From assembly GCA_934772525.1 (NCBI GenBank), contig CAKVMI010000002.1:6309-70308 (forward strand): DNA of 64,000 bases, written 5' to 3'. The notes below the pieces were generated by a model that ran no database searches, was not told the origin of the DNA, and saw nothing but the letters and a program-made list of their open reading frames with translations. This document shows, piece by piece, positions 857 through 63,061 of this stretch. Source of the DNA: an uncultured Clostridia bacterium. Its GTDB lineage: Bacteria > Bacillota > Clostridia > Christensenellales > UBA1242. Position 1 is the first letter of the stretch; each line of letters opens with the position of its first letter. The position numbers and the translations under genes are program-made.

Positions 857-861
857 AATAT

Positions 862-908
862 AAAATCTGTAACTAAAATTAGTTTTGGTTGCAGATTTTA
901 TTTTCTTT
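862..908 (+). terminator. Rho-independent terminator after pnuC-like gene
   Basis: Stem AAAATCTGTAAC / GTTGCAGATTTT followed by a T-run. Confidence 0.7.
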
Positions 909-1010
909 AAATTATTTTTAGTATCCTTATTTTTTTCTTTACATAAATTTTAAATTATGATAAAATAGGCGTGAGCCAAGTATTAATATGTGTTAAGTTA
1001 AAAAACTATT

Positions 1011-1165
1011 TGATGTTAGTTTGTAAGCATTACTCGCAAGTTAATTTACAAAAGCAAATTTGTTATAGTTAACACCGTCACATAGTTTTAATAATCATTA
1101 GTTGCTAAAAAGATGCCACTATGTGTCGCTTGACGACAACTTTTGATATTATAGAAAAATATTAT
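1011..1165. repeat. Noncoding repeat element, copy A (second copy at 44510-44660)
   Basis: By-eye alignment to 44510-44660, same orientation, roughly 70-75% identity in the core (..GCCACT-TATGT-GTCGC-TGAC..AACTT..). Stops in all frames. Confidence 0.7.
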
Positions 1166-1281: not shown

Positions 1282-3462
1282 ATGATTTCAAAAGCAGAAG
1301 AGAGAAAAGAGTTAGACTACTTAAGGTCGGTATTATATGTCCTTGAAAAGGAAATCGCAAAACTTGAAGACGGAAAAGAACAATTGGAGTCCGACATTCA
1401 AGAATCTATGCGTTATATTTGGGAAGAAGGTAGCGTAGAAGCCGACGATTGGATAAATTCGCAAGATAGCGTTCGCCAACTAAATAGGGGCGTATTGCAA
1501 TCTGAAAAGCACTTAAAAGCATACCGCAGAATGGTCGGTAGTGCTTACTTTGCTCGTGTAGATTTTGATGACGGCAACGAAGTAACCCCAATCTATTTAG
1601 GTATAGCAAGTTTAAAGGACGGCACCAACTTTTACGTTTATGACTGGCGTGCTCCCATTTGTAGTCCGTTTTATGATTCCGAAATTGGAGAGTCTAGTTA
1701 CACCTTGCCCGACGGCACAGTAGTAGATGGCAAAGTTACTCTAAAACGCCAATATAAGATAGATAATGACAAAATTGTAGAAATTTTTGATACCGACACT
1801 CAGGTTGTGGACGATGTTTTGGCAAAAATTCTATCTACTACCGGCACTACCAAAATGCGTAATATCGTTGCAACTATCCAAAAAGAACAAAATAAAATTA
1901 TTCGAAAGGACGATGTAGATATTTTAGCCGTTCAAGGGCCAGCGGGTTCGGGCAAAACTTCGGTTGCTCTTCATAGAATTGCATATTTGTTGTATGCCGA
2001 TAAAGAAAATTTAAACAAAACCAATATGTTAATTTTATCCCCAAACGAAACTTTCTCCGATTATATTAGTGACGTATTGCCACAAATGGGCGAAGATAAC
2101 GTATATCAAACAACTTTTTATGATTATGTTCAGTCATATATAAAAGACTTCAAAATTAAAAACAATATGAACTCGGTATACGAAGAACTTTTTATAGGTT
2201 TAAAAACGCCATTCTTTAACTCAATCAAATTTAAGTTCTGGCCTGGGTATATAAAATTAATTGAAAACTATATCGATGAAATTAGATATAGTCTATTTGG
2301 TATAGATAGAGATATAGAAATTGACGGCGAAGTTGTGGCAAGTAGCGAATTTTTATGCAGATTTGTAGATAACAATTTAACCAACTCGAGTATCACACTA
2401 TTCGAACAGGCAAAGTTAATTAATGAAAAAATTATGGCTATTGCAGGTATTAAACTTCAAAAGAACCTAAAAGCACGCAATAAGTTAGAGCGTCAACTAA
2501 AAGCTAATCTAAAAAAGGTAACCGCCAGAGCTATCTATATGGGGCTATTTGAGTCTCTAGACGGCTTTACCAAACGAGTTCAAGACATATACAACGAACT
2601 TAGCGTAGAAAAATCTGAAAAAATGACCATAAAGGACTTAAAAGAAATTTATGAGTACACTATCGACGGACTTCAAAAGGGTATACTTTCATACGAAGAC
2701 GTAACTCCATTTATGTATCTAAAAGAAAGAGTTGTTGGCGTTACCGAACAACACGCTATAAAGCAAATTGTAATTGATGAAGCACAAGACTATACCTTAG
2801 TTCAGTACCAAATAATTGCAAATGTATTTAAGGGTGCAAGGATGACTCTTGTGGGAGATTTAAACCAAAGTATTATGCCGTTTGTTTTGTATGATGATTA
2901 TGATAGTATCCTAAGTGTATTAAAATCAAATAGAGCGAGAGACATTGTAGAAACTCAATATTTAACAAAAACTTATCGTAGTACAGTAGAAATTAATGAG
3001 TTTGCAAACAATCTAATTTCAACAAAGCAATTAATAAAAACTCAATTAGACCGTCACGGCGCTCCAGTAGAAATTGTAAAGGATAATGGCGTAGGCGAAA
3101 ATGCCGAATTTGTAAAGGATGCATTAAGATTAAAAAACGAAAATAACACCGTTGCAATAATTTTCAAAACTGAAAAGGAATGCAAGGAACTTCAACGCTC
3201 ATTGCAAAAATCGGCAAACTTTAAGAACTTCAAATTTATGGTAGAAGGCGAAAAGAACTTTGTAAATACTCATATAATGGTTATGCCACTATATATGGCA
3301 AAGGGTCTAGAATTTGATACCGTTTTAATACCAAAGGCAAATGAAGATAATTATAGTGCCGAAAATAAAAAGTTATTCTATGTTGCAGTAACCCGTGCTA
3401 TGAATAACCTAAAAATTTACTACGATGATATTCCAAGCAGTCTAATACTTTCAAAAGACTAG
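1282..3462 (+). CDS. helD: HelD-type (helicase IV/UvrD-like) RNA polymerase-associated helicase
   Basis: AYFARVDF N-terminal HelD signature, Walker A GPAGSGKTS, IDEAQDY, VGDLNQSI, TKTYRST, AKGLEFDTV, YVAVTRA. Start moved to ATG 1282 (AGGAGA 10 nt upstream); ATG 1249 has no SD. Confidence 0.85.
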   Translation: MISKAEERKELDYLRSVLYVLEKEIAKLEDGKEQLESDIQESMRYIWEEGSVEADDWINSQDSVRQLNRGVLQSEKHLKAYRRMVGSAYFARVDFDDGNEVTPIYLGIASLKDGTNFYVYDWRAPICSPFYDSEIGESSYTLPDGTVVDGKVTLKRQYKIDNDKIVEIFDTDTQVVDDVLAKILSTTGTTKMRNIVATIQKEQNKIIRKDDVDILAVQGPAGSGKTSVALHRIAYLLYADKENLNKTNMLILSPNETFSDYISDVLPQMGEDNVYQTTFYDYVQSYIKDFKIKNNMNSVYEELFIGLKTPFFNSIKFKFWPGYIKLIENYIDEIRYSLFGIDRDIEIDGEVVASSEFLCRFVDNNLTNSSITLFEQAKLINEKIMAIAGIKLQKNLKARNKLERQLKANLKKVTARAIYMGLFESLDGFTKRVQDIYNELSVEKSEKMTIKDLKEIYEYTIDGLQKGILSYEDVTPFMYLKERVVGVTEQHAIKQIVIDEAQDYTLVQYQIIANVFKGARMTLVGDLNQSIMPFVLYDDYDSILSVLKSNRARDIVETQYLTKTYRSTVEINEFANNLISTKQLIKTQLDRHGAPVEIVKDNGVGENAEFVKDALRLKNENNTVAIIFKTEKECKELQRSLQKSANFKNFKFMVEGEKNFVNTHIMVMPLYMAKGLEFDTVLIPKANEDNYSAENKKLFYVAVTRAMNNLKIYYDDIPSSLILSKD

Positions 3463-3691: not shown

Positions 3692-3724
3692 ACAAAAAAA
3701 AGAACCGCTATATTTAGCAGTTCT
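3692..3724 (-). terminator. Terminator of tRNA-Gly transcript (minus strand)
   Basis: AGAACCGC / GCAGTTCT stem. The A8 run on the plus strand is a U-run on the minus strand. Confidence 0.7.
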
Positions 3725-3732
3725 TAAAATTT

Positions 3733-3807
3733 TGGAGCGGAAGACGAGATTCGAACTCGCGACATTTGCCTTGGCAAGGCAACGCTCTACCACTGAGCCA
3801 CTCCCGC
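3733..3807 (-). tRNA. tRNA-Gly (GCC)
   Basis: Cloverleaf GCGGGAG...; anticodon loop TTGCCAA; TTCGAAT T-loop; encoded CCA. Confidence 0.95.
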
Positions 3808-6291: not shown

Positions 6292-7017
6292 ATGAGTACA
6301 ATACAAAATTCTTGGTTGGTAGAAAGACCAATAGCACATAGAGGCTTACACAATAACGACACCGTTCCAGAAAATAGTTTAAAGGCTTTTAGTTTGTGCA
6401 TAGATAAAAATATCCCAATAGAACTAGATGTAAGGGTTACCAAGGATAACCAAATAGTGGTATTTCACGACGATAAACTTAGCCGAATGACCGAGATAGA
6501 CGGCTATGTAAATAACTTAAATTATGCCGATATTATAAATGCTAAGTTATTAAAGACTAACGAAACCATACCTCTATTTAGTGATGTATTAAAACTAGTA
6601 GACGGCAAAGTGCCAATCCTAATAGAAATTAAGAATATAAATGGCGTAAGTTTTGAGAAGGAATTATGGGAACTTCTTAAAAATTATAAGGGTGAATATG
6701 CAATTCAGTCGTTTAACCCACTAATTCTAGAATGGTTTAAGTTAAACGCTCCACAAGTAAAACGTGGTCAACTTTCTTCCTTCTTTAAGGGTGAAAAGGG
6801 TATTTCATTTGTTAAAAAGTTTGTTCTAAAAAGATTAAAACTTACCAAAAGAAGCGAACCAAACTTCATTAGTTATAAGTTAGAAGATTTGCCAAATAAG
6901 TATGTTAAAAAGTTTAAGGATATCCCAGTTTTGTGCTGGACGGTTAAGTCTAATGAAGATGTAGAAAAAGCAAAAAAAGTTGCCGACAATTACATTTTCC
7001 AAGATTTGTATAACTAA
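6292..7017 (+). CDS. Glycerophosphodiester phosphodiesterase family protein
   Basis: IAHRGLH..PENSL..ELDVRVTKDNQIVVFHD GDPD catalytic motifs. Confidence 0.8.
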   Translation: MSTIQNSWLVERPIAHRGLHNNDTVPENSLKAFSLCIDKNIPIELDVRVTKDNQIVVFHDDKLSRMTEIDGYVNNLNYADIINAKLLKTNETIPLFSDVLKLVDGKVPILIEIKNINGVSFEKELWELLKNYKGEYAIQSFNPLILEWFKLNAPQVKRGQLSSFFKGEKGISFVKKFVLKRLKLTKRSEPNFISYKLEDLPNKYVKKFKDIPVLCWTVKSNEDVEKAKKVADNYIFQDLYN

Positions 7018-7733: not shown

Positions 7734-7850
7734 GTAATAAGTTAAATAGACCAAAAACCGCACCAAAAAGTTATCACATTAACTAATTTTTATTAAAACT
7801 TAAAAGAATAATAAGCCGACAATTTAAACGAATTTTAAAGGAACAAAAAG

Positions 7851-9647
7851 ATGTCAACAAAGTTACAAAATATTAGAAATTTTAGCATAATAGCACACAT
7901 AGACCACGGTAAAAGTACACTAGCCGACCGATTAATGGAAATTACTGGTACTGTTACTAAAAGAGAAAGTAAAGACCAGATGCTAGATAGTATGGACTTA
8001 GAAAGAGAACGTGGAATAACCATAAAGTTAACTCCCGTAACTATGAAGTACACATATAAAGGTGAAGAATACATTTTAAACTTAATAGATACCCCAGGTC
8101 ATGTTGACTTTACATACGAAGTTTCAAGGTCACTTTTAGCCTGTGAAGGTGCGGTACTTGTAGTAGATGCCAGTCAAGGTGTAGAAGCACAAACTCTAGC
8201 AAACTGCTATATGGCGCTAGAAAGTAATTTGGAGATTATGCCCGTACTAAATAAAATAGACCTACCTAGTGCAAGACCAGACGAAGTCAAAAAAGAAATT
8301 GAAGACGTAATAGGTTTAGACACTGAAAACTGCCCTATGGTATCTGCAAAAGATGGTACAAATTGCGAAGAAGTATTAAAGCAGTTAATAGAAAAAGTTC
8401 CAAGCCCCAAAGGAGATATTAATGCTCCACTAAAAGCCCTAATTTTTGATAGTTACTATGATAACTTTAAAGGTGCGGTATGCTTAGTTAGAATTATGGA
8501 TGGCAAGGTTAAAAAGGGCGATAAAATAGAGATGATGCAAACGGGTAAAGTTTATGACGTAACCGAAGTTGGTATGTTTACCCCAAAGCCTACCGAAACA
8601 AGTGTATTAGAAGTTGGCGAGGTTGGATACATTACCGCAAGTATCAAAACTGTAAGTGATATTCGAGTTGGTGATACGGTTACTTTAAAAGATAATCCAA
8701 CCGAAACACCTCTTCCAGGATACAAGGTTGTAAACCCAATGGTGTTTAGTGGTATCTTTCCGCTAGACGGCTCTAAGTTTAATGACCTAAAGGACGCACT
8801 AGATAAACTAAAACTTAATGATGCATCGCTAGTATTTCAAAAGGAAACTTCAAATGCATTAGGTTTAGGCTTTAGGTGCGGTTTTCTAGGACTATTACAT
8901 ATGGATATCATTACCGAGAGACTAGATAGAGAGTTTAACCTAGAAATAATTACAACTGCTCCAAGCGTTTCATATAATGTATATAAAACCAATGGGGATA
9001 TGCTAGAAATTAAAAGTCCAGCAAACCTTCCACCAACAACCGAAATAGATAGAATTGAAGAACCTATGGTAAAAGCCGAAATTTATACTCCACCCGAATA
9101 TGTTGGTGTACTAATGGAACTATGCAAAAATAAACGTGGCGAATACAAAAATTTAACATATATAGATAAGTCACGTGTAGCACTTGAATACAAGTTGCCA
9201 CTAAACGAAATAGTGTTTGATTTCTTTGATGAGTTAAAGAGTATATCTCACGGATATGCAAGTTTTGATTATACTTTATGTGGATACGAACCATCTGACC
9301 TTGTAAAGCTAGATATCCTACTAAACGGAGATGTGTGTGACGCACTTTCTCTAATAGTACATCGTGACCACGCCGTAACACGTGGTAGAGCAATATGTGA
9401 AAAACTAAAAGAGAATATTGATAGACAACTATTTGAAATTCCAATTCAAGCGGCAATAGGTGGTAAAATTATTGCACGTGAAACGGTAAAGGCACTAAGA
9501 AAGGATGTAACCGCAAAGTGTTATGGCGGTGATATATCAAGAAAGAGAAAACTACTTGAAAAGCAAAAGGAAGGTAAAAAGCGTATGAGAAAACTCGGTA
9601 CGGTAGAACTTCCAGCAGAAGCATTTATTAGTATATTGAAAAACTAA
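7851..9647 (+). CDS. lepA: Translation elongation factor 4 (LepA)
   Basis: [32 protein letters not shown], LepA C-terminal domain. Confidence 0.97.
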
Positions 9648-33140: not shown

Positions 33141-33147
33141 TACTTTC

Positions 33148-33307
33148 ATAATAAAACCAAATTTATGTTTTAAAATAATTAATTTTTATTAAAAAACTAA
33201 ATTTATGCCTTAAATTAATCAAATTCTATAATAAAACCAAGTTTTGCTTTAAATAAGTTAAATTTTACAAAAAAATTAAATTTGTACTTTAACATAATTA
33301 ATTTTTT
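33148..33307. repeat. Four degenerate ~40-bp tandem repeats in a convergent intergenic region
   Basis: Units start at 33148, 33188, 33228 and 33267. Shared pattern ATAAAACYAArTTTwTGyyTTAAAwTAAkTwAATTTT. Confidence 0.7.
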
Positions 33308-33315
33308 AGAAACAA

Positions 33316-37994: not shown

Positions 37995-38071
37995 CGGGGT
38001 GTAGCGCAGTTTGGTAGCGCACGTGGTTTGGGTCCATGGGGTCGGGAGTTCGAGTCTCTCCACCCCGACCA
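37995..38071 (+). tRNA. tRNA-Pro (TGG)
   Basis: CGGGGTG acceptor, anticodon loop TTTGGGT, encoded CCA. Confidence 0.95.
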
Positions 38072-38095
38072 TTAAGTTTCAATCCTTTGGGATTT

Positions 38096-38172
38096 GGACC
38101 TTTAGCTCAGTTGGTTAGAGCAACCGGCTCATAACCGGTTTGTCCGCGGTTCAAGTCCGTGAAGGTCCACCA
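38096..38172 (+). tRNA. tRNA with CAT anticodon, probably tRNA-Ile2 (lysidine) rather than elongator Met
   Basis: GGACCTTTAGCTCAGTTGGTTAGAGC..CTCATAA loop. Resembles Bacillus Ile2(CAU) as I recall it. Encoded CCA. Confidence 0.9.
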
Positions 38173-38179
38173 TTAATTT

Positions 38180-38256
38180 GGCTCCGTAGCTCAGTTGGTT
38201 AGAGCGATAGCCTGTCACGCTATAGGTCGACGGTTCGAGCCCGTTCGGAGTCGCCA
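38180..38256 (+). tRNA. tRNA-Asp (GTC)
   Basis: Anticodon loop CTGTCAC, encoded CCA. Confidence 0.95.
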
Positions 38257-38297
38257 TTACAAATTAAAGTACATCTAGTAACTTGGCATTCAATTTC

Positions 38298-38373
38298 GCC
38301 TTGGTAGCTCAGTCGGTAGAGCAGGGGACTGAAAATCCCCGTGTCGGTGGTTCGATTCCGCCCTAAGGCACCA
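38298..38373 (+). tRNA. tRNA-Phe (GAA)
   Basis: Anticodon loop CTGAAAA, encoded CCA. Confidence 0.95.
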
Positions 38374-38381
38374 CTTTTTAT

Positions 38382-38456
38382 GCTGGTGTGGCTCAATGGT
38401 AGAGCAGCTGATTTGTAATCAGCCGGTTGTTGGTTCGATTCCGACCACCAGCTCCA
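38382..38456 (+). tRNA. tRNA-Thr (TGT)
   Basis: Anticodon loop TTTGTAA, encoded CCA. Confidence 0.93.
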
Positions 38457-38461
38457 TATAT

Positions 38462-38547
38462 GGGTAGGTTGCAGAGCGGCCAAATGCAACGGACTGTAAA
38501 TCCGTCGATTCACGTCTTCGGTGGTTCGAATCCACCCCTGCCCACCA
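38462..38547 (+). tRNA. tRNA-Tyr (GTA), long variable arm
   Basis: Anticodon loop CTGTAAA, class II variable arm, encoded CCA. Confidence 0.95.
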
Positions 38548-41658: not shown

Positions 41659-43632
41659 TTATGCGTGGAACTTTTTAGATTTATATAGCACTTCATAAAT
41701 TATAGTATGTAATGGGATATAGCAGGTACATATTGCTGGAAGCAACCACATGTAATGGTTATAGTCTTTTTGTGCAAAACTATAAAGCCCAAATGGAATG
41801 TTAACTGCATAAACAATTACAAGTGCTTGAATAAAGAATAACAACGAAAAGATAATTGCAATTTTAAAATTAAACTTAGCCTTAACTTTCTTCGTTTTGT
41901 TTAAACAGAAAATAGTTGTAAATACTGCTGGAATACAAGTCAGTACCACAGCAAATATCCAAAAGTAGAACCCTGCTGGCACGGCAGAAGAAATATAATT
42001 AAAGTCTACCAAATTGAATGATTGTGCAATTAAAAATCCCGTAATTAATAGTGCAAGTGTTATAGCATACGCTATCCAACTAGTTACACATTTAATTTTA
42101 TTACACCAGATATAATTTTTTGCTATTTTTGGTTCTTTTGGTCTTCGAACATATTCGGTAACAATAATACCCCTTTTGCCAAGATTGTCTTCTAGTGTAT
42201 CATAAGAAGAAGTAGATTCTTGCAATTTCTCGCTAGGTGTTGCTTGTTCAAAATTAGTAGACCCATAGCTAGATAAAGTGTTTAGCAAAGTTTTACTTTC
42301 GTTATCGGTAAATTGAGGAGTAAACTTTCGCTTGTTGTCGGTAAATAGTGATGCCGTTGCGTTTTCGTCTTTGCCGTATGGGTTGTAATAGGTTTCGTCT
42401 AAATTGTCATTTTCATTATTATAATCGTAATAGTGGTCAGTTTCTGCAACTGGCATATCTTCGTTTATGCTTGGTGAGTCGTAATTTTCTTTTACAATCA
42501 AATCGGTAGAATCGCTATATTCAGGATCTTTTTCTAACTCATAATTAAAGTTTTTATTATCGTCACCTTTTAGGGTAAAACCTTTATTCCAATAACTTAA
42601 ATCATTAATGTTAGATTCAGATTCATCAGTGCCAAAATTCAAATTAGACGAGTTGTCACTTTCATTAGTTGTGGTAGAAGAATAATAGTCTTCAGCGGTA
42701 GAGTATCCATTAGTGTCGCTAAAATTATAATGGTTGCTATCATCATTTTTTTCGTTAGAATAGTTATCATAATTGTTAGTATATGCGGTAGAATCAGCGT
42801 TTTCGGTAGTATCGGTTTCGTTATAATTATTTGTGGCTACATTTTCTTCAGCTTCGCTTTCACTATCTTCATTTAATAACTTGTCAAATGTACTAGAAGA
42901 AAAGTAATTTGGCATTGTGTGAGTGCCAATTTCTTCGGTAGAATCTTCGTGCTCAATATCTTTTACGCTATTAAAAAACGATGCTCCGTTAGACTTAAAG
43001 TTTTTGATATTAAACTTTGTTTGACCATTGGTTGTATTACCAACTTTAATTCCTTCAAGATTGTCAGTAGGTTGATTGTTAGAATCTACATTGGCATTTT
43101 CACTTTCTTTTTTGTTTTCTGGCTCAACACTATCAATGTAACTATCTATTAGTTTTTCGGTTTGAACTTGATTGCCGCTATTTGAAAGTGGGGTGGCGTT
43201 ATTATTCTCATTTTCTATCTCGACTTCACTATTAGTAGTTTCGGTATTAGTTGACACCCGCTTTGGAGCAACTAAATTATAATCTTTATCTTCGTATGCA
43301 GGAATTTCATTAGATATTAAATTATCTATAATTCCACGAGAAGATAACCATTCGTTCATATTATCGGTGTATTCTTTTCGACCTTGCTCGGTAAGTTTGT
43401 AGTAGTGACGCCTTCCGCCAATTTCGGAGTTTACCCAATATGCCGAAATAAAGCCTTGACCCTCCAATCGTTTTAAACAACTATAAAGAGTAGGTTGTTT
43501 TAATTCATAAGTGCCATTGCTTTTTGTTTCAATTTCTTTTATTATTTCATAGCCATATTTGTCACCATCTGCCAATGTCTTTAAAATGATGGTGTCAACA
43601 TGTCCTCTAATTAAGTCTGAATCTATTGACAT
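41659..43632 (-). CDS. PadR-family winged-helix regulator fused to a ~380-aa N/D/S/T/Y-rich low-complexity linker and a C-terminal multi-TM domain
   Basis: N-terminus RGHVDTIILKTLADGDKYGYEI...LKQPTLYSCLKRLEGQGFI..RRHYYKLTEQG is PadR. Four or five hydrophobic helices in the last ~150 aa. SD AGGAG. Confidence 0.75.
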   Translation of the reverse strand: MSIDSDLIRGHVDTIILKTLADGDKYGYEIIKEIETKSNGTYELKQPTLYSCLKRLEGQGFISAYWVNSEIGGRRHYYKLTEQGRKEYTDNMNEWLSSRGIIDNLISNEIPAYEDKDYNLVAPKRVSTNTETTNSEVEIENENNNATPLSNSGNQVQTEKLIDSYIDSVEPENKKESENANVDSNNQPTDNLEGIKVGNTTNGQTKFNIKNFKSNGASFFNSVKDIEHEDSTEEIGTHTMPNYFSSSTFDKLLNEDSESEAEENVATNNYNETDTTENADSTAYTNNYDNYSNEKNDDSNHYNFSDTNGYSTAEDYYSSTTTNESDNSSNLNFGTDESESNINDLSYWNKGFTLKGDDNKNFNYELEKDPEYSDSTDLIVKENYDSPSINEDMPVAETDHYYDYNNENDNLDETYYNPYGKDENATASLFTDNKRKFTPQFTDNESKTLLNTLSSYGSTNFEQATPSEKLQESTSSYDTLEDNLGKRGIIVTEYVRRPKEPKIAKNYIWCNKIKCVTSWIAYAITLALLITGFLIAQSFNLVDFNYISSAVPAGFYFWIFAVVLTCIPAVFTTIFCLNKTKKVKAKFNFKIAIIFSLLFFIQALVIVYAVNIPFGLYSFAQKDYNHYMWLLPAICTCYIPLHTIIYEVLYKSKKFHA

Positions 43633-43773: not shown

Positions 43774-44445
43774 ATGATAGAACCAAAGGAAATTACTCGT
43801 TCAAATAGAAAAACGTTGGCACTTACAATTAATCGTTCGGGGGAGCTTATTGTAAGGGCTCCCTTTAATTTGCCCGATTACGAAATATTTAAGTTCATAG
43901 AAGAAAAAGATGCTTGGATTAAATCTCGAATCAATAAAATACGTAACAAAAGCGTAAATAATCCCGATTTGGTTTCATATCAAGCCTTTTTACTATTTGG
44001 CAAAATGTATCAAGTCGTCGTATCAAAAACTGCAAAGTCGGTTCAGTTTGTGGGAGACGTATGTATTGTTCCAAGTGGTCTTTCAACTGCTGAAATGGTT
44101 CGTAAAGCAATATTAACTTACAAACGCCTTGCAAACAAGTGGCTACTTAAACGCACCGAAGAAATATCAAGTGTAACTGGTTTAAAATTTAACTCATTTA
44201 AAATTTCTGACACTAAGGGTAGGTGGGGTGCTTGCACCAGTAAAAAAGAGATTAACCTAAATTTTAGGGTGGTGTGTTTGGCACCTCCTCTAATAGATTA
44301 TATAATTGTACACGAACTTTCACACACCAAAGAAATGAATCATAGTGCTAAATTTTGGACAATTGTAGAAAGCATTTTGCCGGATTACAAAAAAAGACGC
44401 AAGGCAGTAAAAGACCTTAACATCCTTTTTGAAATATATAGATAA
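43774..44445 (+). CDS. DUF45/YgjP-type (M48-like) metal-dependent hydrolase
   Basis: IIVHELSHTKEMNHSAKFW hallmark (HExxHxxxxNH..FW). Confidence 0.85.
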   Translation: MIEPKEITRSNRKTLALTINRSGELIVRAPFNLPDYEIFKFIEEKDAWIKSRINKIRNKSVNNPDLVSYQAFLLFGKMYQVVVSKTAKSVQFVGDVCIVPSGLSTAEMVRKAILTYKRLANKWLLKRTEEISSVTGLKFNSFKISDTKGRWGACTSKKEINLNFRVVCLAPPLIDYIIVHELSHTKEMNHSAKFWTIVESILPDYKKRRKAVKDLNILFEIYR

Positions 44446-44509
44446 TGAAATGAAACTATCTGGTTACCGAAAATTTTATTATTAGTTTACTCTTTGAGAT
44501 TCTGTCTTG

Positions 44510-44660
44510 TGATGTTGCTTCCCAAAAGTATTAACTCTCAAATCAATTTGCAGATATAAAATTCGTTTAATTAACGCCATCACAGTTTGAATAACTTTCA
44601 GGTGCTGAAAATATGCCACTTTATGTCGCCTGACTAAAACTTCCAATAATATAAATTATA
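44510..44660. repeat. Noncoding repeat element, copy B (see 1011-1165)
   Basis: Aligned by eye to copy A, same orientation. Lies between convergent DUF45 and GT4 genes and ends at the GT4 stop codon. Confidence 0.7.
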
Positions 44661-45845
44661 TTAATTCGTTTTTGTGTTATTAATTAGATTTATGTACTTT
44701 TCGTACACAATTTTTGCAAGCCTATCAAAGGTAATGTAAATATCTTTATAGCAGTTTTCTCGTACTCTTTCGTATAATTGGTCATTACTGAAAATTTTAA
44801 TGATTTCATCCGCAAATGGAATTGGTTCAGCCTTTGCAGAAAAGCCATTTACATCTTTAATTATAGCACTTCCAGCAACGCTACCTTCAGCAAAAAGCGT
44901 TGGTAAATTAAATGCCGCCGCCTCAATTCTTACAATGCCGTCGGTATCGTAAAAAGAAGGGAATACATGTAGGTCTGCCGATGCAAAATATTTACACTTT
45001 TCGTTAGTGTCTACGACTTTTCCAACAAATACACAGTTGTTTTCTATTCCGAGTTTGTGAGTTTTACTTACAAAATAGCCCATATCCGAGCCATCACCAA
45101 TAATTAAAAGTTTGTACTTAAAGTTTTTATCTGTTAGAACCTTACAACTTGAAAGGGTCAAATCAATATTTTTAAGTTTGTTAATTCGTCCAATGCTTAA
45201 AAGTATTTTTTCATCATTTTTAATATTGTATTTTGCACGAATTTCCTTTTTAAAACCTTCAATTTCATTAGCAGTATAATTATTCACCAAATTGGTAGCA
45301 TTTGTAATTATATCTATAGGAATTTTCACCCCATACTCTCTAGCAACTTTTACACACGCATGGTTCATAGTCCATAATACATCACATTTGTTAAATACCT
45401 TAACTATAGATTTTAAAAGCATTTTAGTAATTAAATTGTTGTGCGTTGCCTTATAAAAATCTTGCTTATATTGACTATGCATAGTTGCAATTACTGGTAT
45501 ATTATGCTTTTTTCCATATGAAGATGCCATTTTGCCAATACCAAAAGGTGAATGAATGTGGATTATATCTAAGTTAGCATCTTTTATTGCCTTTTTAAAT
45601 TTACTTCCAAATTTTGGGGTAGGTAGATCATAATCAAAAAAAGGAATCCGCATACTTTTGCTTCTAACAACCTTATAAGGTAGGGTGCTGTCATCAAAAT
45701 CCCCTTTTGTGGTTGGTGCAAACACTGTAACATTCGCAAATTTAGATAGGTTTCTAGCATAATTATCTACAACCATTATAACGCCGTCTACCATGGGGTA
45801 AAATGTGTCTATAAATAGACCAATGTTTAATTTTTTTTCTTCCAT
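44661..45845 (-). CDS. Glycosyltransferase family 4 (GT-B; glycolipid synthase-like)
   Basis: N-terminal FxDTFxPxVDGV, C-terminal E(x7)E-type region ..RIEAAAFNLPTLFAEGS. Confidence 0.8.
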   Translation of the reverse strand: MEEKKLNIGLFIDTFYPMVDGVIMVVDNYARNLSKFANVTVFAPTTKGDFDDSTLPYKVVRSKSMRIPFFDYDLPTPKFGSKFKKAIKDANLDIIHIHSPFGIGKMASSYGKKHNIPVIATMHSQYKQDFYKATHNNLITKMLLKSIVKVFNKCDVLWTMNHACVKVAREYGVKIPIDIITNATNLVNNYTANEIEGFKKEIRAKYNIKNDEKILLSIGRINKLKNIDLTLSSCKVLTDKNFKYKLLIIGDGSDMGYFVSKTHKLGIENNCVFVGKVVDTNEKCKYFASADLHVFPSFYDTDGIVRIEAAAFNLPTLFAEGSVAGSAIIKDVNGFSAKAEPIPFADEIIKIFSNDQLYERVRENCYKDIYITFDRLAKIVYEKYINLINNTKTN

Positions 45846-46151: not shown

Positions 46152-46442
46152 ATGAATAAAAAGCGACTGAAACAAAAATTAAAAGAAGTTAATGAACAAA
46201 TTGACACGACGAATGTTTTTATTAAAAGATGTATGGTTATTTATTATAGGCCAATAGAATATGATCCCGACACAAGGATGTGCTTTCCTGATGAAAGAAT
46301 GAGAAATTATGCGTGGGCTAGTGCCGAGAATATGATAAAAATACGTGCCGAATATATGCAAAAAGCGGAACGAATTAAAGAACTTATCCGAAAGGAAGAA
46401 GAGAGGGAAAAACAAGAAAAGCACCAACAAAACGATATGTAG
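46152..46442 (+). CDS. Small charged helical protein, unknown function
   Basis: 96 aa; SD AGGAG; Lys/Glu-rich predicted coiled coil at both ends. Confidence 0.55.
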   Translation: MNKKRLKQKLKEVNEQIDTTNVFIKRCMVIYYRPIEYDPDTRMCFPDERMRNYAWASAENMIKIRAEYMQKAERIKELIRKEEEREKQEKHQQNDM

Positions 46443-46499
46443 TATTTAGTTCTAAAATACACAATAGTCTAAAATTGATGTAAATTAATAGGAGTAAAA

Positions 46500-46790
46500 A
46501 TGGTAAATATAATGACAAAAGATGATAAAAATAATACTATGGAATATTTTAATTATCTTCAATTAAAACTAGAAAACATTAAAAGTCAAATGAAAGATAG
46601 TTTAATTGATATTTCAGCAATGACAGGCGTTAAGGGCTTTGAAGATGTAGTAGAAAGTATTAAAAATAATTTACGTTCATTAAAGTCAGAAAAAAGTCGT
46701 ATTGAAGCCGAAAAAACAGCCGTGGCAAATTCTATAATAGAACGAACATTGAATGATTTGCTTGAAAACTTTAGCGAAGACGAAAAGTAA
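46500..46790 (+). CDS. Small helical protein, unknown function
   Basis: 96 aa; SD AGGAG; heptad-like Leu/Ile spacing. Confidence 0.55.
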   Translation: MVNIMTKDDKNNTMEYFNYLQLKLENIKSQMKDSLIDISAMTGVKGFEDVVESIKNNLRSLKSEKSRIEAEKTAVANSIIERTLNDLLENFSEDEK

Positions 46791-46830
46791 TAGAGAACAA
46801 AAATATTTGACCAATTTAAAGGAGAACAAG

Positions 46831-47100
46831 ATGGTAAAATCAGAAGGTTTTTTAGTTAAACCAGATGGTCAGTTAAAAATGTTAAGAAAAAATATTGAAA
46901 GAATAGATGTAACTATAAAACGCCAAAGAGCGTTTTTAGAAATAGCCAGTGAAAAGAATAATGTAGATTTAAATAGACTTACTTCATTAGAAATGGCATT
47001 AAAATATTTTGAGTCATGCAAATCAAAATACGAACTAGAATTAAAACGCTTAACCGGAAATGCAATTGACCAAGAAAACGCAGAATCAGAAAACTGCTAA
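46831..47100 (+). CDS. Small helical protein, unknown function
   Basis: Start moved to ATG 46831 (AAAGGAGA 7 nt upstream); 89 aa. Confidence 0.55.
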   Translation: MVKSEGFLVKPDGQLKMLRKNIERIDVTIKRQRAFLEIASEKNNVDLNRLTSLEMALKYFESCKSKYELELKRLTGNAIDQENAESENC

Positions 47101-49236: not shown

Positions 49237-49312
49237 TGGTGGGCCATCGGGGACTCGAACCCCGGACAAACAGATTAAGAGTCTGCTGCTCTACCAACTG
49301 AGCTAATGGCCC
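49237..49312 (-). tRNA. tRNA-Lys (CTT)
   Basis: GGGCCATTAGCTCAG..; anticodon loop CTCTTAA; encoded CCA. Confidence 0.95.
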
Positions 49313-62782: not shown

Positions 62783-63061
62783 TTTAGTTCTCCTTAAATT
62801 TATATGTTATATTTATTGTACCATATATTGCCCCTTTAAGACAAACAAATTGACATACTAATTTATAAAATTCACTTGTCGAAAGTTGTAATTTGTTACG
62901 ATTTTAACTTTTATTTCTCAAGTTTTTTAATTAAATTTACAAGTAAATAGATAAATATTTTACGCCTATCATAGAGACATTTAATACGTTCAAGCAAATA
63001 CTCTATCATTGTAAATCCCGCCAAAATCACCCCAAATTTAACGCAAATTATTGTTTTGCAA

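Follow-up and report, generated by a model that had tools for sequence, protein, structure and literature searches.

Introduction

MITEs, such as the Correia/NEMIS elements of Neisseria, are small, non-autonomous, intergenic, and polymorphic, and they can supply −10-like sequence. The Listeria LhrC1-5 and the cyanobacterial Yfr2 families comprise multicopy or tandem sRNA genes, which have their own promoter and terminator and reside at conserved loci. The BOX, RUP, and SPRITE repeats of the pneumococcus are shorter than 200 bp, lineage-restricted, folded when transcribed, and co-transcribed with their neighbors, and they have been judged to be parasitic (Croucher et al. 2011, PMC3049150). BOX has a modular composition with an internal module that can be repeated, and terminal inverted repeats as well as target-site duplications are features of both BOX and RUP (PMC3049150).

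Here, we describe a repeat from uncultured Clostridia that resembles BOX, RUP, and SPRITE in being short, noncoding, intergenic, multicopy, and confined to a narrow lineage, in having a predicted fold with compatible base changes, and in being variably present between related genomes. It has no sequence similarity to these repeats and differs from BOX and RUP in that its units have direct TATAAT-like rather than inverted ends. Unlike BOX, it is predicted to form a four-way junction and a separate long hairpin rather than one long stem, and it is the whole unit, not a sub-module, that is repeated head-to-tail. Moreover, its 3′ half is almost invariant across lineages in which iPGM is only 47% identical. 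It differs from MITEs in that no inverted ends, no parent IS, and no short target duplication of constant length could be shown. As in the LhrC and Yfr2 families, there are paralogous copies, some of which are in tandem, and a conserved structure with invariant single-stranded stretches; in contrast to these families, many units have no promoter and terminator and abut open reading frames (ORFs), and their positions vary between near relatives.

Results

Two homologous noncoding copies in the window

In the window, i.e., the entire 64-kb stretch of DNA analyzed (32% G+C), two copies (A and B) of a noncoding repeat are homologous and have the same orientation. Using blastn against the whole window, 1025-1164 and 44526-44663 aligned on the same strand with 73.9% identity over 142 columns (E=2.3e-19), and a MAFFT alignment of 981-1200 with 44471-44690 gave 77% column identity in the core. 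These values agree with the ~70-75% identity in the same orientation given in a preliminary description made by eye, and the E value is far beyond that of the next match (E=0.013) and what would be expected for AT-rich DNA. That next match, at 62795-62946 on the − strand, was rejected as a third copy; it has 60% identity in a poor alignment, lies in the promoter region of the next gene, and was not matched by the covariance model described below. Using this model (R2, filters off), we identified the full unit of A at 999-1157 (109.4 bits, E 8.5e-21, model positions 1-157) and that of B at 44497-44657 (92.0 bits, E 4e-17). There is no third copy in the 64-kb window, the best match after A and B having 17.7 bits (E 0.2). 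Thus, the element is present twice, as originally described, and the coordinates given at that time are correct to within ~12 nt of the model limits. The window repeat scan detected no larger repeats or inverted repeats around A or B, and the copies are not the end of any recognizable IS.

Both copies are intergenic. Copy A lies between pnuC, for a PnuC-type transporter (26-856), and helD, for a HelD-like UvrD helicase (1249 or 1282-3462). Copy B lies between the ygjP-like gene for a YgjP-like metallopeptidase (43774-44445, + strand) and a convergent gene for a GT4 glycosyltransferase (44661-45845, − strand). No small ORF is conserved among A, B, and the copies at the loci L007 and L009, in line with the original description of the element as noncoding. 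A mini-ORF in A, B, and L007 could encode a small peptide (MPLCVA*/MPLYVA*), but this candidate was rejected, as it has no Shine-Dalgarno sequence and is absent from L009.

Several other features of the window were recorded. The repeat scan identified four head-to-tail AT-rich units at 33144-33315 with a period of ~40 nt and 68-77% identity to the reference copy (family D2). There are two tRNA clusters, at 37995-38544 and 50517-51234 (7 and 8 genes, respectively), and single tRNA genes at 3736-3807 and 49240-49312, both on the − strand. An unusually long protein of 657 aa, encoded at 41659-43632 on the − strand, has an N-terminal PadR domain (residues 16-89) as its sole Pfam match and is conserved in relatives (659-660 aa). 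Finally, three small ORFs (96, 96, and 115 aa) at 46152-47100 lie by the 5′ end of the GT4 gene; in relatives, three small genes (88-96 aa) with no Pfam match on record are found at the place adjoining the GT4 gene on the divergent strand.

The repeat belongs to a family in uncultured Clostridia

The strict core ATGCCACTNTNTGTCGCNTGAC matched nothing in the GTDB representative genomes or in IMG/VR and was found in three metagenome contigs, of which two are from the window species and one, L007, holds a third type with ~70% identity to A and to B. A degenerate core, WTKCYACTNNNTGWCGCNTGAMNAMWA, which was built to fit all four variants, matched 12 loci in GTDB genomes, and 11 of these were confirmed by nhmmer. 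A match in Velocimicrobium was not among the 11 and was dismissed as due to chance. All 11 loci come from MAGs that bear the name Clostridia bacterium or uncultured Christensenella sp. and originate from yak, roe deer, mouse, and other samples, with up to four loci per MAG despite the narrow pattern. Altogether, the degenerate core and two covariance models identified at least 19 units, which are distributed over ~9 uncultured Clostridia genomes or metagenome bins. The units are ~150-157 nt long with a G+C content of 26-39% and occur singly or in head-to-tail arrays of two to three, in which all members have the same orientation. Some arrays (L026 and L022) hold quite different units, a finding as compatible with old paralogous sRNA genes as with repeated insertion.

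The genes flanking the loci are unrelated (HelD, NTP transferase, iPGM, gp30.3-like, MurA/EPSP-like, RecG, glycoside hydrolases, Rho, and MFS), and no protein family was common to the loci in the flanks examined. In 4 of 13 contexts, the downstream gene is convergent. No transposase, recombinase, or reverse transcriptase was detected near any copy within the ~8 kb examined per locus, nor a transposase within the ~8-20 kb of sequence around each copy. L007 and L026 represent one orthologous locus in two organisms, in which both the unit and its flank are conserved. Between lineages in which iPGM is 47% identical, the 3′ half of the unit has retained ~85-90% identity (by eye, alignment A13), which argues for strong functional constraint or horizontal spread.

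Relatives in phages and plasmids were not found, i.e., there was no blastn match in INPHARED or PLSDB, and the core patterns had no match in IMG/VR. With a looser linker pattern, there were 107 viral matches, all of which we attribute to chance, as the model had no match in 82 viral loci (L033-L114, 699 kb). These matches include two at 3340-3580 of L049 (IMG/VR) that are 150 nt apart and represent an unrelated tandem duplication of ~150 nt, also with no model match.

All units share a predicted fold with covariation in five helices

Folded alone, every unit gave one common architecture as its MFE structure. In this architecture, a closing helix (P0) around three hairpins (P1-P3) forms a four-way junction that is followed by a conserved linker (TTTGAATAAMCATCAG), a long interrupted hairpin (P4), and a tail. 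RNAalifold on a MAFFT alignment of all units recovered P2 and P4 alone. Because the variable stems were misaligned by MAFFT, we used a seed structure specified by hand and realignment with Infernal. Specifically, the covariance model was seeded with three near-identical units and the hand-written structure, all units were realigned, and the model was rebuilt; the first seed did not include the window copies.

In the resulting model-fitted alignments, which favor the structure, 90.2% of the pair cells were standard pairs for 15 sequences compared with 69.6% in shuffled alignments, 34 of the 44 pairs had changed on both sides, and the covariation score was 0.505 compared with 0.138; none of 500 shuffles reached any of the observed measures. 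Sliding the 3′ partners by 1-3 columns lowered pairing to ~36% and the score to ~0.06. For 19 sequences, 89.4% of the cells were paired compared with 70% after shuffling, and the score was 0.448 compared with 0.125, again with none of 500 shuffles reaching the observed values. All five helices contribute to the covariation. The sequences of P1-P3 are almost wholly different between subfamilies while pairing is kept, and in L001, L027 unit 1, and L022 unit 3, the otherwise invariant P4 has been swapped for a different sequence with the same shape. The frame of six codons (ATG CCA CT. ... TGA) is gone in these three units, in which the replaced P4 sequence still pairs. With compensatory changes in 35 of the 44 pairs of the modeled four-way junction and long hairpin, the evidence that the predicted fold is under selection is unusually clear. 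The strand on which folding occurs is weakly determined; there are 50 G-U versus 38 A-C cells, and for the 19 sequences, the fraction of paired cells in the same columns is 89.4% for the given strand and 87.9% for the complement.

The preliminary description had also proposed a small covarying hairpin (TTAG-TTG-CTAA in A and TTCAG-GTG-CTGAA in B). This hairpin is not supported. In the 19-sequence family alignment, 61% of its cells were paired compared with 59% after shuffling, with no significant covariation, and 95 of 500 shuffles reached the observed pairing. Instead, its bases make up the 5′ strand of the strongly supported P4.

In copy A (999-1157, + strand), a degenerate 5′ lead, TAAAAAA rather than TATAAT, precedes the four-way-junction domain at 1004-1087 (+ strand), which was mapped from the model alignment, the single-sequence MFE fold, and the family covariation. 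P0 pairs 1004-1015 with 1076-1087 (11 of 12 pairs), and P1 pairs 1016-1024 with 1036-1044 (9 pairs, 3 of which are G-U); P2 spans 1045-1058 (4 of 5 pairs with one A-C mismatch) and P3 spans 1061-1074 (TGTTA/TAACA). The remaining parts were mapped on the + strand using alignment A13. The linker at 1088-1099 reads TTTAATAATCAT, the family consensus being TTTGAATAAMCATC. In P4, at 1100-1141, the outer AGTT/AACT and the apical GCCAC-TAT-GTGTCGC are kept, while the three middle pairs are broken (GTC to AAA); this region takes in the TTAG-TTG-CTAA sequence as well as the core motif ATGCCACT.T.TGTCGC.TGAC. The tail at 1142-1157 is TTTGATATTATAGAAA, compared with the consensus CTTCCGATAATATAAT, and carries the 3′ TATAAT-like terminal repeat. 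Copy B (44497-44657, + strand; model R2 and alignment) is more eroded. Its P0 (44508-44514 with 44578-44584) is intact; P1, P2, and P4 (44600-44641) each have mismatches, and its tail is at 44642-44657. The canonical TATAAT at the 5′ edge is absent from both copies. Copy A is identical or near-identical in the same-species metagenome contigs L008 and L006, and copy B is identical in four such contigs (L017-L020).

TATAAT-like direct repeats bound the units

The units end in TATAAT-like direct repeats, i.e., ATATAATCTATG... at the 5′ end and ...CTTCCGATAATATAAT at the 3′ end. Within one genome, the similarity between copies spans from (A)TATAAT to GATAWTATAA(T), and the sequences beyond are unrelated. 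These sharp limits support that a TATAAT-like motif bounds every unit and is common to neighbors in an array. Incomplete units were found at three loci. In a truncated unit in L027 (~3700-3740, − strand), the 5′ lead is immediately followed by the final ~26 nt of a unit; in L028 (6048-6163), the first unit is without the four-way junction; and in L031 (5696-5980, − strand), the second unit breaks off after P2.

Promoter-like sites in which the 5′ TATAAT of the unit is the −10 element were identified in L023, L021, and L025 with 11, 10, and 11 of 12 matches, respectively. In all three, the −35-like hexamer is in unrelated flanking sequence 16-17 nt 5′ of TATAAT. Hence, these sites are either promoters that drive the unit or −10 boxes of promoters in which the element landed. 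The TTGACG/TTGAC inside the unit was considered as a −35 element and rejected because the spacing to TATAAT is 14 nt, and the alternative −10 element at 16 nt, TAATCT, is poor; moreover, TTGAC is replaced in structurally intact members, supporting that it is part of the P4 helix and not a −35 box.

The 3′ contexts of the units are similarly mixed. A terminator is located directly 3′ of the L023 unit (scan match), the L021 unit is followed by a hairpin with a T run (by eye), and a terminator-like hairpin that adjoins a convergent gene lies past the L026/L007 array. By contrast, L032, L025, and L027 have no terminator, and a ribosome binding site (RBS) and a start codon lie 15-35 nt past the tail. 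The L023, L021, and L001 units begin 5-13 nt after the upstream stop codon, and some units abut ORFs on both sides. Altogether, a bracket of own promoter and terminator is present in L023 and L021, partial in L026/L007 and L025, and absent in L032, L027, L001, copy B of the window, and the internal units of arrays.

Presence of the repeat varies between close relatives

An intrinsic-terminator-like hairpin at 860-901 (+ strand; terminator scan) 3′ of pnuC separates this gene from the helD leader. A promoter-like site with the sequence TTTACA-17-TAAAAT and a TG extension was identified by the promoter scan at 938-966 (+ strand), 33 nt 5′ of copy A. Because the latter site follows the hairpin and is 5′ of A, copy A is most likely part of a ~300-nt helD leader if this candidate promoter is used. 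As other copies adjoin unrelated genes, the link to helD is incidental.

The HelD homologues form an identity ladder, all in uncultured "Clostridia bacterium" assemblies. In the relative with 95% identity in HelD (L009), the flanks of the element are ~90% identical to the window, while the central ~155 nt are ~57% identical and score 18.7 bits with the family model, which gives 109 bits for A, supporting that this relative has a decayed copy. The relatives with 92% and 84% identity in HelD have kept the promoter-like block and the proximal helD leader, and the upstream element is absent. Accordingly, the promoter-like site at 938-966 is kept both in L009 with its decayed copy and in L001, the 92% relative, without the element at that position. 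L001 has a good copy (89.7 bits) elsewhere, 13 nt past the helD stop codon, a position at which the window has no copy. This copy is inside a 193-nt block between 20-nt direct repeats (7794-7813 and 7987-8006) that take in the helD stop codon and have a 15-nt identical core, TTAATTTTGTAAAAA. The 3′ extension of the block is A-rich, and a terminator-like hairpin with a T run comes after the second repeat. The single tRNA gene downstream of helD is kept in L001 and L009.

At the B locus, relatives with 93% and 90% identity in the GT4 protein have the same gene order, and their convergent stop codons are 10-14 nt apart compared with 215 nt in the window. Thus, B is within an insertion/deletion difference of ~205 nt, and the block at 44456-44660 (+ strand) is present in the window species and absent in the relatives. 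The first ~25 nt of this block (CTATCTGG TTACCGAAAATTTTATTATTAG) look like a unit start joined to a unit tail and, judging from this sequence, are possibly the remnant of a second unit. The empty site in a relative, GATAATGAAATAAAA, is similar to the unit's own tail. In total, presence/absence polymorphism was observed at three loci, with one clean empty site (the B locus) and an extra flanking duplication at one site (L001), and this turnover was seen between relatives with 90-95% identity in the flanking proteins.

Comparison of the family with catalogued RNA and repeat classes

At the gathering score, Rfam 15 identified tRNAs alone in the window and in 11 family loci, and a literature text search using the core string and general terms retrieved no published description of the element. 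Together with the lack of phage or plasmid relatives, these results are in line with the original description, in which the element was not recognized as any known riboswitch, sRNA, or REP/MITE family. Rfam scans of A, B, L025, L023, and L001 at relaxed E values gave weak matches. The best was to RF02713 MCS4, a Mycoplasma small RNA, with 30.9 bits (E 0.006 in a search of 200 nt), well short of the gathering score of 56. It covers the unit in L023 together with its terminator (6347-6494), with much of the score coming from the terminator, and was not obtained for A and B of the window, L025, or L001. Both MCS4 and the L023 unit have, in this order, a hairpin, a linker with AUUG..CAGU, a hairpin, and a terminator; however, the Rfam consensus is shown without the four-way junction of the present family, and we regard the resemblance as only a lead.

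With MITEs, the family shares the small size (150-157 nt), the lack of coding capacity, the multiple copies, and the insertion polymorphism. However, its ends are direct (5′ ATATAAT..., 3′ ...ATAATATAAT) rather than terminal inverted repeats, and therefore, it falls outside the classical MITE definition. As these AT-rich ends come close to being self-complementary (8 of 10 by eye), a weak inverted-repeat reading is possible. In a check for target duplications, every unit was flanked by TATAAT-like sequence, the L001 copy had an additional duplication of 15-20 nt, and one clean empty site was available. This flanking TATAAT-like sequence either represents a specific target or belongs to the element itself.

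Four additional classes were considered and rejected. REP/BIME, which are associated with RAYTs, consist of alternating G+C-rich palindromes of 20-40 nt, while the units here are ~155 nt with 26-39% G+C and in one orientation. A riboswitch class is contradicted by the unrelated downstream genes and by the 4 of 13 contexts with a convergent downstream gene. For a type III toxin-antitoxin array (ToxI-like), no common gene is found downstream of the arrays; known type III antitoxin repeats are also about four times shorter than the present units. Finally, a type I toxin-antitoxin system, which calls for a conserved small hydrophobic ORF, does not fit, as A, B, L007, and L009 have no small ORF in common.

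Discussion

The reading that we favor, with about even confidence, is that A and B are diverged and partly eroded members of a mobile or duplicative family of structured intergenic repeats of ~150-157 nt. This family is found in uncultured gut and rumen Clostridia and is uncatalogued, being absent from Rfam and from the literature retrieved. The sharp boundaries, the several copies per genome at differing loci, the turnover between relatives, the unrelated neighbors, and the truncated copies all point to a non-autonomous repeat. The unit would then be a small mobile or duplicative element comparable to pneumococcal BOX, RUP, and SPRITE that inserts into AT-rich, TATAAT-like sites by the ends of genes. 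Its fold may be needed for propagation, through recognition by a trans-acting enzyme, or for tolerance or function once the unit is transcribed. An inserted unit would be transcribed with its neighbors as part of a 5′ leader or 3′ untranslated region (UTR), or from a promoter in which its own 5′ TATAAT serves as the −10 element. Of the two window copies, A would belong to the helD leader, and B occupies the space that separates the convergent ygjP-like gene from the GT4 gene.

A serious rival, which we consider possible and hold tentatively, is that the units are a multicopy family of genes for trans-acting or protein-binding small RNAs. The 5′ TATAAT would be the −10 element, transcription would start at the G of GTRATG with P0 at the 5′ end of the RNA, solitary copies would end at the downstream intrinsic terminator, arrays would be clusters of paralogues, and the conserved linker, P4 loop, and tail would form the functional surface. 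The invariant 3′ half and the promoter/terminator brackets at some loci are what keep this explanation in contention. It also agrees with the strong covariation in five helices with stems that vary next to the invariant 3′ half, the retention of sequence across lineages with 47% identity in iPGM, and the retention of unit and flank at the orthologous locus in L007 and L026. The near-consensus promoters of L023, L021, and L025, with hexamers 16-17 nt 5′ of TATAAT, and the terminators after the L023 and L021 (by eye) units and the L026/L007 array are as expected for such genes. However, the −35 hexamers are outside the repeated unit and not conserved, several units (L032, L025, and L027) have no terminator and run to an RBS and start codon, others (L023, L021, and L001) start 5-13 nt past the upstream stop codon, and the internal units of arrays have a poor promoter alone (TTGACG-16-TAATCT). 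Also, positions vary between close relatives, and one copy has decayed.

We think it improbable that the unit is a self-propagating RNA element, or one with an ssDNA copy, that resembles SINEs or retrozymes and is recognized by an enzyme acting in trans, or alternatively, the amplified RNA subunit of a ribonucleoprotein (RNP). In the former case, an RNA of ~155 nt would be recognized by its four-way-junction head and 3′ hairpin and copied into TATAAT-like sites. This process would yield insertions that are multimeric or slightly longer than the unit as well as 5′-truncated copies (L027 and L028), and it would account for the 15-nt target duplication and the A-rich 3′ extension in L001 as one product. 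In the latter case, the RNA subunit of an RNP would have been amplified in these small genomes.

An explanation that we rate as unlikely is a single-strand-DNA element of the IS200/IS605 "PATE" type, or another type mobilized by HUH/Y1 enzymes, that inserts 3′ of a TATAAT-like target. The hairpins would fold in DNA, and the 3′ end of the element would recreate the target and thereby permit tandem insertion. The lack of inverted terminal repeats, the strand-specific and hairpin-rich unit, the TATAAT-like sequence at the left flank and right end of every unit, the head-to-tail arrangement, and the resemblance of the empty B site, GATAATGAAATAAAA, to the unit tail match this explanation. Nevertheless, the left (P1) and right (P4) hairpins are dissimilar, while the TnpA model expects similar subterminal hairpins; no flank examined has tnpA or tnpB; and the 15-nt duplication around the L001 copy is of a kind that IS200/IS605 elements do not make. 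The G-U and A-C counts do not discriminate.

It is very unlikely that A is a cis-regulatory, riboswitch-like leader that controls helD. Although A is structured and located between the conserved promoter-like site at 938-966 and helD, no gene lies downstream of copy B in its orientation, the genes before or after other copies are functionally unrelated, and the relatives with 92% and 84% identity in HelD are without the element upstream. Lastly, chance similarity of AT-rich sequences or attL/attR-type boundary repeats of a 43.5-kb island between the copies, which the 32% G+C of the window and the direct repeats 43.5 kb apart might suggest, can practically be dismissed given the E value of 2e-19 in the window, the 92-109 bits against a model first seeded without the window copies, the occurrence of the unit in unrelated contexts of other genomes, the tRNA clusters and housekeeping genes in the interval, and the relatives that are without B and keep the same flanking genes in the same order.

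Good descriptions of small interspersed repeats come from a handful of cultured pathogens, while the uncultured Clostridia dominant in gut metagenomes have scarcely been covered. The family described here combines a constrained fold and a nearly invariant 3′ half with behavior like that of a mobile element, and a partner enzyme was not seen near the copies. The covariance model and the core pattern make the family annotatable in MAGs, in which an unannotated family of this type could inflate calls of "novel sRNAs" or break assemblies. If the element is selfish, its fold would point to an unrecognized mechanism of mobilization that favors promoter-like TATAAT sites, and its insertions would rewire leaders and 3′ UTRs such as the leader of helD. 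If it is a functional RNA, it would represent a new candidate class of structured bacterial noncoding RNA.
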